From the sequence record PZ347775.1: DNA of 64,000 nucleotides, one strand, 5' to 3'. The position numbers and the translations under genes are program-made. This DNA is from a phage. The stretch's first letter is position 1. Each line of letters begins with the position of its first letter. Below, one piece after another: positions 33,317 to 43,152 of the stretch. The notes below the pieces were generated by a model that was not told the origin of the DNA, did no database searches, and saw only the letters and a program-made list of their open reading frames with translations.

Positions 33317-33637
33317 TTATTCTTTAAATCTAATCAATTTATTCATAGACTTTGAAACTTCTGCACGAACCTCATGTAGGTTTTTAAGCTGTTCAAGACG
33401 TTGCTCATAGTAAGCAATTTCATCTTCTTCGAGACAGTCCTGTGAATCTTCTTTAAGATAACGTGCATAATCCTGGAAAGCTTTACGGACTACTTCCTGG
33501 AAGTCATCAAGACTTTGAATTTTCTTAGGAGCAACAGATACACGACGAGGGGCAGTATAATACTCATAACCAAACCCTGCGCTTAATTGAGCCATTAATA
33601 TTTTTCCTCTGGTTGAAACACAGCACGACAAGCCCAC
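33317..33637 (-). CDS. hypothetical protein (vs.3 position)
   Basis: 106 aa ORF. Confidence 0.45.
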
Positions 33638-33861
33638 ATACTAGCTTCTTTGAGTTTCGTTTTAGCAATAGTTAACTGATCGATGCTTTCAGCATAATTC
33701 TTCGCGAATTCATAGTCTTCACAATTATTTAGCACTTCCCAGAATTCGTCGTATAAAGCATCAAAGATAAGTCCTAAACGAACTTCAGCGTCTTTGATTG
33801 CATTCACTTTACCGATTTTCTCTTCAGTATGGGGCTTATAACCTTTAATGTCTTCAATCAT
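33595..33861 (-). CDS. vs.4: probable Acb2, anti-CBASS cyclic-oligonucleotide sponge (vs.4 position)
   Basis: 88 aa ORF at the vs.4 position downstream of regB; from memory T4 vs.4 encodes Acb2; sequence recall is approximate. Confidence 0.6.
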
Positions 33862-34075
33862 ATTCTACTTCCTCACCAGTACATAAATCATATTCAACTA
33901 AACGAATAGGTTCATGAATGCCATATCCTTGAACAGAAATTTCTGTCGTAGGATAAATTCCACTAATATCACCCATATTCCACGCTTCATTAAATTGCTG
34001 TTCGCCTGAATTACTAAACCACTCGGCGAAAGCATTTAGCACATCTTTAGAACCTTCAATAATTATCTTTGCCAT
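33854..34075 (-). CDS. hypothetical small protein (vs.5 position)
   Basis: 73 aa ORF. Confidence 0.4.
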   Translation of the reverse strand: MAKIIIEGSKDVLNAFAEWFSNSGEQQFNEAWNMGDISGIYPTTEISVQGYGIHEPIRLVEYDLCTGEEVEYD

Positions 34076-34449
34076 TACAGACTCTCGGTAAAGGTACGAG
34101 CAATAACGTCGCGCTGCTGTTCCGGAGTCAGAGAGTTAAAGCGAACTGCATATCCGGATACACGGATGGTCAGCTGCGGATATTTTTCCGGATGCTTAAC
34201 TGCATCTTCCAGAGTTTCGCGACGCAGAACGTTAACGTTCAGGTGTTGACCACCTTCAATTTTAACTGTAGGTTGTGGTTCAATTTCAATTTCACGGGCA
34301 TGCAAACCGTAGAAAATTTCCGGGTCTACAAAAGAGTCCTCTTTAAAAGTTTTAGAGACAATAATTCTTGCTTGAATACCGTCTTCAAAATAAATAGTAC
34401 CTTTATGCGTGCCTTCAAGAATTTGATATGCTTTCATATAACCTCTCAA
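34075..34449 (-). CDS. autonomous glycyl-radical cofactor, GrcA/YfiD-like (T4 Y06I-type)
   Basis: C-terminal [61 protein letters not shown] is essentially the E. coli GrcA glycyl-radical domain (RVSGYAV loop). Confidence 0.85.
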
Positions 34450-34826
34450 TTAGAAAATAAATTTATCCAAGATTGCTCTTTAATTAAAAATGGCTCAGAA
34501 TCATATGCCATTAAACTTTGGGTGATTAGTCCTTTAAAAGGCCCATCAATAAATTCCATGGTAAAATATGGAATTTTATTCATTAATCTTGCATTAGGAG
34601 CAGTGCACAAAACTCTGCATCCTTTGAATACGCCTTTTTGTAATTTGTATTGCTTAGGGTAAAATTCGCTCAAGACGTTGTTATTTGCCAAAATTTCAAA
34701 ATGATTCACCAATTTATTTTTAATAGTTTTTGGCGAAAAATAAAGATATTCGAAAAGTTGCGTGTCTGTCATCATTGCATTCCGATTACGAAAAACTGTG
34801 GACGAGTAATACCACCAATGCAACAT
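34446..34826 (-). CDS. hypothetical protein
   Basis: 126 aa ORF, start overlaps neighbour. Confidence 0.4.
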
Positions 34827-35359
34827 TTACTATTGCAGCAGTAATGTACAGTGTCAATATGGACACTATAAATTTTATCCATATCGGGAGCTTTAACAGG
34901 CTCATCGATTATATACAAAATCCGCGAAAGCGATAAACCTCTGAACTTGCTTCCTTTATTACCGATAAAACTACGGACAGAATCGGTAAATAAGCGGAAT
35001 CGAATATCATCGCCAGAATAACGAGAAAATTCTTTTTTAATGTGGCCTGCAGAAATTTTAGCGTAAGCTGAAGTATTAGAAAGAACAATAACTGTTCCAC
35101 CATCATACAGCCAATTAGCAGCAAAGTTAGTCACAGCAGTTGATTTACCGGATTGTCTGCCACCATCTAATCGAAGTGTGCAATACTGCTTGAGTAAGTC
35201 TTCAAATGGTGGGATATAATCGTTTTTACAAATTTCTTCTACTCTAGCATCAGAATGGTGTGTAAAAGCATTCATCAGGGATAGATAAGGACCAGTTAAA
35301 AATGTTCTCATTTTATTCTCTCTAAATTTGGGCCATTCCATGGCGCATGAATTGTCCAT
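34772..35359 (-). CDS. hypothetical protein with P-loop-like motifs
   Basis: GGRQSGKST (Walker A-like) and ILYIIDEP (Walker B-like); true start uncertain. Confidence 0.45.
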   Translation of the reverse strand: MDNSCAMEWPKFRENKMRTFLTGPYLSLMNAFTHHSDARVEEICKNDYIPPFEDLLKQYCTLRLDGGRQSGKSTAVTNFAANWLYDGGTVIVLSNTSAYAKISAGHIKKEFSRYSGDDIRFRLFTDSVRSFIGNKGSKFRGLSLSRILYIIDEPVKAPDMDKIYSVHIDTVHYCCNSKCCIGGITRPQFFVIGMQ

Positions 35360-35464
35360 TTCTGTATTTACCCATTACCGCACTTGGGCTCGACCTTATT
35401 ACAGGTTGGCGGGAATCCCTCATAGAACCATGAGGTCCAGCTTGTTCCCATATTTCTTATTTGC

Positions 35465-35938
35465 TTATTTGAATGATTTGACGTACTGAATAGAGCCTTT
35501 GCTATTCACGAAAGCGATTTTACCATTTTTATTATACATGGTAGCAGTACGCTGATAGCCATAAGTTTGCTTACCAGATTGATAACCAACTAATGCAAAA
35601 TTATCTTCACCCATTTTATTCTGTTTAGCACGAATGCGTTCATGCCCATGCGCCATAAGAACCTTAGCATCACCAGTTGCAATGGATCTACGAGTTTTTT
35701 CATCTTCAACTGTATTAACAAAGTCGTCAAATGAATCAAATTTAGCATGGGATTTATTATACAGTTTTCCATCTACTGCATAATTGTATCCTTGTACATC
35801 CATCTCAACTTCTGTACCATCATCTAATACAGCAGTGATTTTTTGACCTTTTTTAAATTTCAAAAGATCAGTAAAAGATTCAGCAATAATTTGAGAATTA
35901 ATAGCTGCTTCAGTAATAAATTCTTGATATGTTTTCAT
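35465..35938 (-). CDS. internal-protein-like capsid-targeted protein (N-terminal CTS MKTYQEFITEA)
   Basis: 157 aa beginning with the conserved capsid targeting sequence of T4 internal proteins. Confidence 0.65.
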   Translation of the reverse strand: MKTYQEFITEAAINSQIIAESFTDLLKFKKGQKITAVLDDGTEVEMDVQGYNYAVDGKLYNKSHAKFDSFDDFVNTVEDEKTRRSIATGDAKVLMAHGHERIRAKQNKMGEDNFALVGYQSGKQTYGYQRTATMYNKNGKIAFVNSKGSIQYVKSFK

Positions 35939-35954
35939 GTGTATCCTTTAATTT

Positions 35955-36272
35955 TTATTCTTTAGGGAAGTTTTTAGAATATGCATCATAAAGCTTATTT
36001 CCAATACGGCGGAAAACTCTAGCCGCAAAACGATTTTCTGGGTTTTTAATCATGATTTGCATCATATAAGTACCCGCGTCAGAAAGAGCTTCTTCATAGT
36101 ACCCGTTAATTTCTTTAAGAGTCCTACGTTTACCACCAGGACCATCAACAGTGATTTTCCATTTACCTGTAGAAGTGCGACTTGGCGGCTCAACTTGTTC
36201 AATCCAGATATAACCGCCTTCTACACGTTGTCCTTGGGCAGATTCTGCAATAAATTCTTTAAACGTTTTCAT
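35955..36272 (-). CDS. internal-protein-like capsid-targeted protein (CTS MKTFKEFIAES)
   Basis: 105 aa with CTS-like N-terminus, adjacent to e as are T4 ipII/ipIII. Confidence 0.65.
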   Translation of the reverse strand: MKTFKEFIAESAQGQRVEGGYIWIEQVEPPSRTSTGKWKITVDGPGGKRRTLKEINGYYEEALSDAGTYMMQIMIKNPENRFAARVFRRIGNKLYDAYSKNFPKE

Positions 36273-36343
36273 ATGGTTCCTTTAAATATTTTAATTAGTA
36301 ACTATGAATATACTATCACAGTTCTAGGAGAAAGTAAACAACT

Positions 36344-36874
<531 letters not shown>

Positions 36875-42130: not shown

Positions 42131-42206
42131 TGGTCGAGGCAGTAGGGATCGAACCTACGACCTAGGACTTAGAAGGTCCTTGCTCTTCCTTCTGAGCTAT
42201 GCCCCG
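42131..42206 (-). tRNA. tRNA-Arg (anticodon UCU)
   Basis: Hand-folded cloverleaf on minus strand: acceptor CGGGGCA/TGCCTCG, anticodon loop CTTCTAA, T-loop GGTTCGATCC, encoded CCA. Confidence 0.8.
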
Positions 42207-42210
42207 TAAT

Positions 42211-42286
42211 TGGGGTGACCGATGGGAGTCGAACCCATGACTACGAGAATCACAATCTCGAGTTCTACCAACTGAACTACGGCCAC
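42211..42286 (-). tRNA. tRNA-His (anticodon GUG), no encoded G-1
   Basis: Acceptor GTGGCCG/CGGTCAC, anticodon loop TTGTGAT, discriminator C, CCA; resembles E. coli tRNA-His. Confidence 0.7.
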
Positions 42287-42400
42287 ATTAATACCTACTC
42301 CAACAATCAAGATGTCTTCACACGAAATTAAGAGAAGAGTGATCAGTTCAACCCCGATAATCGCGTCAAGTAGATATTAATGTGACAGTTGTCACAAATT

Positions 42401-42475
42401 TGGCGGACGTGATAGGATTCGAACCTATAACCAATCGCTTAACAGGCGATCGCTCTGCCATTGAGCTACACATCC
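42401..42475 (-). tRNA. tRNA-Asn (anticodon GUU)
   Basis: Acceptor GGATGTG/CACGTCC, anticodon loop CTGTTAA, T-loop GGTTCGAATCC, CCA. Confidence 0.75.
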
Positions 42476-42479
42476 AAAT

Positions 42480-42566
42480 TGGTGGGGAGTGATGGAGTCG
42501 AACCACCCGAGTCGCAATGACAATGGATTTACAGTCCACACCGCTACCTCTACGGGATAACTCCCC
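42480..42566 (-). tRNA. tRNA-Tyr (anticodon GUA), class II with long variable arm
   Basis: Acceptor GGGGAGT/ACTCCCC, anticodon loop CTGTAAA, long variable arm TGTCATTGCGACTCG, CCA. Confidence 0.75.
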
Positions 42567-42579
42567 TTAATTCTTAATT

Positions 42580-42654
42580 TGGTGGCCCTGGGTGGAATTG
42601 AACCACCATCTGGCGATTATGAGTCGCTTGCTTGAACCTTCCAGCTACAGGGCC
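42580..42654 (-). tRNA. tRNA with anticodon CAU (Met, or Ile if C34 is modified as reported for T4 tRNA-Ile)
   Basis: Acceptor GGCCCTG/CAGGGCC, anticodon loop CTCATAA, T-loop GGTTCAATTCC, CCA. Confidence 0.7.
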
Positions 42655-42655
42655 T

Positions 42656-42732
42656 TGGTGCTGATTGACGGAATCGAACCGCCGACCTTCTCATTACAAG
42701 TGAGTTGCTCTACCTACTGAGCTAAATCAGCA
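42656..42732 (-). tRNA. tRNA-Thr (anticodon UGU)
   Basis: Acceptor TGCTGAT/ATCAGCA, anticodon loop CTTGTAA, T-loop GGTTCGATTCC, CCA. Confidence 0.8.
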
Positions 42733-42736
42733 AAAC

Positions 42737-42826
42737 TGGCGGAGGCGATAGGATTTGAACCTATGAGTCGCCGGAGCGACTGCCGGTTTTCAAGACCGGT
42801 GCATTAAACCACTCTGCCACGCCTCC
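42737..42826 (-). tRNA. tRNA-Ser (anticodon UGA), class II
   Basis: Acceptor GGAGGCG/CGCCTCC, anticodon stem CCGGT/ACCGG with loop CTTGAAA, long variable arm, CCA. Confidence 0.8.
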
Positions 42827-42828
42827 AG

Positions 42829-42902
42829 TCTCCATACAAGGATTTGAACCTTGGACCTCCTGATCCCAAATCAGGCGCTCTACCAAACTGAGCTACACGG
42901 AG
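42829..42902 (-). tRNA. tRNA-Pro (anticodon UGG), CCA not encoded
   Basis: Acceptor CTCCGTG/TATGGAG, anticodon loop TTTGGGA, T-loop GGTTCAAATCC; 3' end is A-CU not CCA. Confidence 0.75.
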
Positions 42903-42912
42903 TAAATTAAAT

Positions 42913-42986
<74 letters not shown>

Positions 42987-42991
42987 AAATT

Positions 42992-43078
42992 TGGTGCGAG
43001 AAGTGGGACTCGAACCCACAAGGAAATCATTCCGCAGCATTTTAAGTGCTGTGCCTTTACCAATTTGACCATTCTCGC
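42992..43078 (-). tRNA. tRNA-Leu (anticodon UAA), class II
   Basis: Acceptor GCGAGAA/TTCTCGC, anticodon stem CAGCA/TGCTG with loop CTTAAAA, long variable arm, CCA. Confidence 0.8.
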
Positions 43079-43079
43079 G

Positions 43080-43152
43080 CTGGGAATAAAGGACTCGAAC
43101 CTTTGCATCCTGGAATCAAAATCCAGTGCCTTACCAACTTGGCTAATTCCCA
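43080..43152 (-). tRNA. tRNA-Gln (anticodon UUG), CCA not encoded
   Basis: Acceptor TGGGAAT/ATTCCCA, anticodon loop TTTTGAT, T-loop GGTTCGAGTCC; first gene of the cluster. Confidence 0.8.

Follow-up and report, generated by a model that had tools for sequence, protein, structure and literature searches.

A vs.8 ortholog with a probable terminase-type ATPase domain and structured RNA leader in a T4-like phage region lacking denV

As phage T4 carries denV, the gene of the pyrimidine-dimer glycosylase endonuclease V, beside its vs genes, we were interested which gene stands at this place in a T4-like (Tequatrovirus) genome segment of 64,000 nt (PZ347775.1; the window, below, is this whole stretch), for which an earlier note had placed a P-loop protein in the denV slot. 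The 195-codon ORF in question (34772..35359, minus strand), with GGRQSGKST and ILYIIDEP, is present in the ORF list and its translation. The T4 gene order given in that note agrees with the annotated T4 record, which reads e, ipIII, ipII, denV, vs.8, vs.7, vs.6 (GrcA), vs.5, vs.4, vs.3, regB in the direction of transcription. The ORF, however, does not occupy the denV slot but is vs.8 itself, which in T4 lies directly downstream of denV. Residues 26-219 of T4 Vs.8 (NP_049732.1) matched the window with 90% identity over 194 aa (tblastn, E = 4e-119), the ORF covered positions 2-177 of the 177 of the phrog_1488 profile (function 'unknown'; E = 1.7e-78), and phage PP01 annotates the counterpart gene as vs.8. 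From these matches and the gene order, the ORF is the ortholog of T4 vs.8 and not a substitute for denV; a conserved vs.8-type protein adjoining denV, the outcome which the note had set against its own proposal, is what was found. That a non-homologous P-loop protein displaced denV, perhaps with a role in DNA repair, as the note had read the locus, would fit the absence of denV and the location of the ORF close to the T4 denV position. As vs.8 adjoins denV on the downstream side in T4 itself, both genes occur together in Serratia phage CBH8 and in 29 IMG/VR genomes and are neighbours in many further phages, the ORF is so close to T4 Vs.8, and Pfam and profile searches detected no similarity to any glycosylase family, such a displacement is refuted for practical purposes.

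The surroundings of the ORF are those of T4. Matches to the 3.1 kb around it were obtained in 896 phage records, the best with ~96-97% identity, and no phage record identical to the window over 20 kb was found. On the downstream side, vs.8 is the first gene of a vs.8-vs.7-vs.6...vs.3 string, of which T4 Vs.6, Vs.4 and Vs.3 matched the window with 99%, 95% and 98% identity, respectively (tblastn). The adjoining vs.7 (34446..34775, minus strand; 109 aa, 98% identity to T4 Vs.7 by tblastn) overlaps the vs.8 stop with its start (ATGA), and in 31 of 35 loci, which come from several genera, the gene after vs.8 encodes a Vs.7 homolog, mostly with a stop/start overlap, making vs.7 a likely translationally coupled partner of vs.8. 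Structure prediction for Vs.7 reached a pLDDT of 42, from 3 usable sequences. The orthologs of vs.3 and vs.4 are found just downstream in the string (33320-33861, minus strand). Since vs.3 is TadIV-1, which acts as a sponge on the signal of type IV Thoeris (PMC13243611), and vs.4 is acb2, encoding an anti-CBASS sponge (PMC12657218), vs.8 heads a counter-defence cluster. In phage JLBYU22, the vs.3 ortholog (L002 1018-1296) carries the label 'putative pyrimidine dimer DNA glycosylase', which looks wrong, given the identity of vs.3 with TadIV-1 and the presence of the real denV at another place in this record. Between these genes, vs.5 of the window (33854-34075, minus strand) is an intact 73-aa ORF, likewise in JLBYU22, and the N-terminal ~70 aa of its product resemble an ORF downstream of vs.7 in Klebsiella phage KP179; T4 Vs.5 (58 aa) matches it in two different frames, and the T4 copy therefore looks frameshifted. 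On the upstream side follow an ip4-like (35465-35938) and an ip10-like internal-protein gene (35955-36272) and the lysozyme gene e (36344-36838; 97% identical to T4 e, tblastn), all on the minus strand. The two internal-protein genes matched phrog_3155 (internal virion protein, E = 6e-102) and phrog_3966, and PP01 annotates the counterparts of the three genes as ipIV, ip10 and e. Farther away, the tRNA cluster of the window (42131-43152, minus strand) comprises 11 tRNA genes compared to 8 in T4, with His, Asn, Tyr and Met as additions and without the Ile tRNA of T4.

A search of the whole 64-kb window with T4 endonuclease V led to no match (tblastn, best E = 1.5), so that the earlier observation of an interval free of any glycosylase holds and its alternative explanation, a missing denV, is correct within the window. 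Two slots are empty. The T4-type slot is reduced to 12 nt (35453..35464, unstranded) between the stop of the ip4-like gene and a conserved RNA element described below, the first helix of which is abutted by the denV stop codon in T4; the second (36273..36343, unstranded) lies between e and the ip10-like gene. It is there, exactly between e and ip10 and not adjoining vs.8, that JLBYU22, the closest denV-bearing relative, carries denV, and alignment of JLBYU22 with the window revealed a clean cassette difference at this site. PP01 has the same e/ip10 slot without denV, Serratia phage CBH8 has denV at the T4 position and Klebsiella phage KP179 lacks it from the locus. Of the 30 GenBank records closest to the window, 25 share its collinear arrangement without denV, and the other five have ~400 bp more, with an annotation as endonuclease V; of 35 IMG/VR contigs with vs.8, 29 have denV and six have none. 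Therefore denV is a movable and often missing cassette: some relatives have it between the internal-protein genes and vs.8, some between those genes and e, and others have no copy. As the window covers every place in which relatives keep denV, the phage is most likely without it. A copy outside the window would have ~100 kb of genome to reside in, but in all 29 denV-bearing T4-like IMG/VR contigs denV is inside the 4.5-kb locus of vs.8, within ~3 kb of that gene, and the region around vs.8 is fully inside the window and empty, which renders a distant copy very improbable. In both known positions of denV, one and the same early-promoter-like sequence stands ahead of the cassette, GTTTAC...GATAGTATATT in JLBYU22 (L002 3972-4460) and TTTACA...GATACTATAG in T4 (L001 7357-7420); in the window, this sequence directly precedes ip10 (36273-36343). 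Loss of denV is a common polymorphism and predicts only a greater UV sensitivity than that of T4.

The extent of vs.8 required a correction at its 5' end. A search of 5.8 billion proteins gave homologs of 173-181 aa, a few of ~194-196 aa starting from the same upstream ATG as the 195-aa ORF, and some fragments, and the family alignment begins at the methionine that is residue 17 of this ORF. An AGAGAG motif is located 7 nt upstream of the corresponding ATG. The preceding 16 codons (MDNSCAMEWPKFRENK; 35312..35359, minus strand) comprise the 3' part of the RNA leader and the Shine-Dalgarno region; they fall in a non-coding element, the frame of which is broken by indels in relatives, and judging from this pattern their translation is very unlikely. 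From the homolog starts, the AGAGAG motif and a DNA alignment of T4 with the window, vs.8 is therefore read as 34772..35311 (minus strand), and the true product probably has 179 aa plus stop, with a predicted terminase-type P-loop ATPase domain, and not 195 aa. The annotated T4 product is longer still (219 aa, with 41 extra N-terminal residues), with residues 1-32 matching the window in another frame (tblastn). Alignment of the T4 vs.8 5' end (L001 6790-6913) with positions 35312-35423 of the window traced the extension to a 9-bp tandem duplication (CTTATAGAG twice) and a 1-nt difference, which open a frame through the RNA element. This frame is interrupted by an in-frame TAG in PP01, shifted by one extra base in the window and in JLBYU22, and missing from the window and most relatives, and the N-terminal extension of T4 Vs.8 is probably an annotation artefact. 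The vs.8 start codons that give the 219-aa product of T4 and the 195-aa product of many automatic annotations are thus probably wrong, which matters for protein expression, for example in work on Avs2.

A second result of the alignment concerned the DNA before vs.8, as the ~135 nt upstream of its start are nearly identical in the window and T4. This stretch contains a conserved pseudoknotted RNA of ~125 nt (35328..35452, minus strand; NC_000866 64817-64941 in T4), which lies between the upstream gene and vs.8 and overlaps both the first codons of the 195-aa ORF and the annotated N-terminus of T4 Vs.8. A covariance model found it once in the window, at 35328-35452 (118.5 bits, E = 5e-30). Even phages with no more than 33-45% identity in Vs.8 have a 32-nt core upstream of the gene, accompanied by frame-breaking indels. 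By blastn, the element was detected in 1117 GenBank phage records, and it is conserved across the Tevenvirinae; in 40 records sampled across the ranking of these hits, the region was unannotated or labelled 'hypothetical protein', and none carried an RNA label. The blastn matches include 18 Campylobacter phage records, which may hold copies. The exact core pattern occurred once per genome in 38 viral contigs, almost all of them T4-like genomes of 116-178 kb, and also in 19 metagenome contigs, and was absent from all 185,579 bacterial and archaeal genomes. Further copies were located at L186 2469-2556 and L187 2467-2562, and six extra loci suggested by a relaxed DNA pattern for distant copies turned out to be chance matches inside coding sequence. 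In some Enterobacter/Karamvirus-like phages, two tandem copies precede vs.8 (L016 1713-1971, L027 1720-1977, L096 307-564), the second being more degenerate (61-76 bits compared to ~110). The 5' core was also found in two unrelated coliphage groups. In the rV5-like phage Murica, it lies in a gap of 335 nt before the tRNA cluster, on its upstream side, whereas in phage Ivi (44.9 kb) and in L072, a metagenomic contig, it is located directly downstream of the endolysin gene; in L072, an intrinsic-terminator-like hairpin follows the core. PHROG scans of the genes beside the RNA in these non-T4 phages resulted only in 'unknown function' and endolysin. A 33-codon upstream ORF of T4-type phages (MRDSRQPVIRSS...) was considered as a peptide gene and rejected because nucleotides and base pairs are kept and the frame is not, being lost in other genera by 1-nt and 21-nt indels.

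The structure was derived by manual reading of covariation, which led to seven helices (Pa, Pb, Pd, Pe, Pf, Pg and Ph) and one pseudoknot, and was then tested in two ways. In a MAFFT alignment of 41 sequences that had not been fitted to the structure, 92.7% of the cells were paired and 15 pairs showed compensatory change, compared to 26-44% paired cells for slid partners and none of 500 shuffles as good. In a covariance-model alignment of 59 distinct sequences, 93.8% of the cells were paired, with compensatory change in 21 of 30 pairs and at most 46% pairing for slid partners. The pseudoknot is formed by at least twelve different complementary pairs, e.g. CUG/CAG, CCG/CGG, AAACCG/CGGUUU, CUCGA/UCGAG and CACAC/GUGUG. 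Scoring a Watson-Crick pair as 1 and G.U as 0.5, duplexes of at least 4 were obtained for 61% of the cognate and 15% of the non-cognate combinations. As G.U pairs occur on the vs.8-sense strand, the folded strand is the mRNA. Folding of the single leader sequence gave z = -0.08, and RNAalifold on the first MAFFT alignment returned only 10 pairs. The core of ~90 nt consists of four helices and the pseudoknot around the nearly invariant ACCUGUAAUAAGGUCGAGCCCAAGUGCGGUAA, to which the T4-like version adds two 3' hairpins, with a GGA in each loop, ~19 nt apart, that may, from the sequence pattern, resemble CsrA sites.

Searches of Rfam 15 gave no meaningful match to the T4-type copy (E up to 10) or to seven other variants (E up to 1), a relation to the T4 stable RNAs rnaC and rnaD was looked for and not found, and literature searches returned no RNA described at the vs.8 locus, which is not proof that it is undescribed. 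As an annotated feature, the vs.8 leader RNA seems to be new and never annotated before. Most likely it would control or insulate vs.8 expression. Candidate functions are those of a cis-regulatory leader binding a ligand or a protein, of a processing or insulating element at the border where cassettes are swapped, or of a stand-alone RNA. The chances are about even that it represents a new class of structured phage RNA, be it a riboswitch-like sensor, a self-processing or insulating element at this cassette-swapping edge, or a stand-alone RNA acting on a host factor. It is in any case a folded RNA with strong conservation, found in the phage family that has been studied best and standing before genes that include two validated immune-signal sponges, and if it were a sensor or a processing element, it would offer a direct handle on how T-even phages control counter-defence genes.

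Regarding the protein, the assignment as a P-loop NTPase made in the earlier note is supported by conserved motifs, an AlphaFold model and structure search. The Walker A or P-loop motif GGRQSGKST (35138..35164, minus strand) aligns to SRQLGKTT of T4 gp17 and the Walker B motif ILYIIDEP (34898..34921, minus strand) to MIYIDE (hhalign). In 17 homologs, D49-G-G-R-Q-S-G-K56 is invariant, as are I134, I135, E137 and P138 of Walker B (D136 at least 90% conserved), R113 and a C-terminal G-x-Q. An Arg-Gly motif, R124 G125 (34937..34942, minus strand), is likewise invariant in the 17 homologs, aligns to VRG of gp17 and sits 12 residues before the Walker B Asp; by analogy with the terminase literature, we take it to be a candidate arginine finger. 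Walker A is kept in all family representatives with E < 1e-10, and the invariant motifs in every such member. Only very remote relatives (P0056, P0058, P0060, P0064 and P0066-P0069, overlapping phrog_2586) have His in place of the Walker A Lys (R[QR]SGH[ST]) and D-C/V-A in place of the Walker B DE; by these substitutions, they seem to form a sister family in which catalysis is altered or lost. The AF2 model is confident (pLDDT 81, pTM 0.82) and consists of a single alpha/beta domain with five strands, i.e. Vs.8, with its ~179 aa, is one RecA-like (ASCE) nucleotide-binding domain with the fold of ATPase subdomain I of the large terminase. Foldseek scores against the PDB were weak, matches in BFVD were similar small uncharacterized proteins of many large myoviruses, and a PDB sequence search with the Vs.8 profile yielded nothing significant. 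A link to terminases was also seen at the profile level, with 4e-6 for phrog_2 (terminase large subunit) against Vs.8, E = 0.0026 for hhalign with T4 gp17, in which Walker A, Arg-Gly and Walker B were all aligned, and a weak match of 14 of the 17 family members to Terminase_6N (best E = 6.8e-5). For Vs.8 of the window, the Terminase_6N score of 15 bits stays below the Pfam PF03237 cut-off of 22. Lid subdomain II, coupling motif and C-terminal RNase H-like nuclease are all absent from the 179 aa, which end after the fifth strand. An SF2 helicase is defined by two RecA-like lobes with motifs Ia, II (DExx), III and VI, whereas Vs.8 has one domain only, and the Pfam DEAD model matched one of the 17 members (E = 0.077). 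Vs.8 is accordingly best described, from its predicted features, as a stand-alone terminase-type P-loop ATPase domain and not a terminase.

This nature of Vs.8 is already known from a study of 2026, in which the uncharacterized, ATPase-like protein is described as homologous in sequence and similar in structure to the ATPase of T4 terminase, as toxic on co-expression with the immune (terminase) sensor EcAvs2 and, by prediction, as sitting in the EcAvs2 pocket (PMC13601566). The gene was detected in 1010 phage records of GenBank, spread over Tevenvirinae genera, and the family, with 51 representatives at 50% clustering among 1.84 billion proteins, is small and phage-restricted. In T2 and some other phages, vs.8 looks split, with fragments of 57 aa and 110 aa and others of 104-121 aa, and is therefore accessory and dispensable at least in some hosts. 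We propose that Vs.8 would bind and probably hydrolyse ATP, as an oligomer or together with Vs.7; the hydrolysis is probable from the intact motifs, and alone the protein would not be able to translocate DNA. Because it is shaped like a terminase ATPase, it may take part in phage-host conflict, and we infer that it acts either there or with Vs.7 on a substrate. An anti-defence or decoy role and a catalytic role on a substrate are each a serious possibility and equally so, though neither is the probable one. As triggering Avs2 harms the phage, this activity is no explanation for the retention of vs.8.

A narrower form of the anti-defence role would make Vs.8 a non-catalytic decoy, an ATP-bound terminase mimic produced early that occupies Avs, Upx or other sensors before terminase appears. 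Its gene string is shared with two proven anti-defence sponges (PMC13243611; PMC12657218), it mimics the terminase ATPase in structure and sequence, it is predicted in the EcAvs2 pocket and toxic on co-expression (PMC13601566), and it is accessory and lineage-restricted; in the sole published test, however, the sensor was activated and not blocked, and the catalytic Glu and the Arg-Gly are invariant, neither of which a pure binding decoy would need, so that we consider this form rather unlikely, though well above negligible. The homology to gp17 subdomain I raises another explanation, that Vs.8 modulates the packaging motor of its own phage, for example by joining gp17 in mixed rings or through binding to gp16 or gp20, and the retained Arg-Gly motif, acting between subunits in some terminases and reportedly so in work on P74-26 TerL, would agree with it. 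The dispensability of vs.8 in some phages and its location among early accessory genes away from genes 16 and 17 speak against a packaging role, which we hold to be improbable. To the same degree doubtful is a helicase-like remodeller of RNA or DNA, perhaps with its own leader RNA as target and Vs.7 as partner, as there is a single RecA domain without second lobe and without helicase motifs Ia or III, and the RNA core also occurs in phages without vs.8.

Therefore, from the orthology, the domain assignment, the searches for denV and the covariation, we are fairly confident that the locus is best explained by a vs.8 ortholog with a terminase-type ATPase domain, an absent denV and a structured RNA leader. 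Compared to known systems, the ORF has only the neighbourhood in common with T4 endonuclease V (DenV, pyrimidine-dimer glycosylase), to which there is no sequence similarity anywhere in the window. With T4 Vs.8 it shares the motifs and the neighbours vs.7 and vs.6, whereas upstream T4 has denV and the window the ip4-like gene. The likeness to T4 gp17 and subdomain I of Terminase_6N comprises Walker A with its Arg-Gln, Arg-Gly, Walker B of the form hhhhDE and a five-stranded RecA-like core; unlike a large terminase, Vs.8 has only ~180 aa, no lid, no coupling (C) motif and no nuclease, and its chain ends with G-M-Q after the last strand. Ksap1 and Ksap2, non-terminase activators of Avs2, are similarly small, lineage-restricted phage proteins in which the sheet resembles that of the terminase ATPase and which, when co-expressed, trigger Avs2, but Vs.8 differs from them, on the account of the same study, by real sequence homology to terminase and intact Walker motifs (PMC13601566).

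In the leader RNA, the strands follow one another as in HDV-like ribozymes, with the 5' strands of the first helix and of the pseudoknot, a hairpin, the 3' strand of the first helix, a second hairpin domain and finally the 3' strand of the pseudoknot, and its first helix begins directly after the upstream stop codon. In contrast to these ribozymes, it has no pairing partner for P1.1, the T4-type joining strand UAAAUA is without the conserved C, and conservation is strongest in the very domain that HDV-like ribozymes can do without. With neither P1.1 nor a catalytic C between P4 and P2, and no HDV-type hit in Rfam, membership in this class is not supported. A precedent for an autoregulatory leader is the gene 32 mRNA leader of T-even phages with its conserved pseudoknot. 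Both are conserved pseudoknots in the 5' leader of a T-even gene, but the vs.8 leader is much larger, with ~125-146 nt and seven helices, and it is built around an almost invariant core of 32 nt and is also present in unrelated phages.
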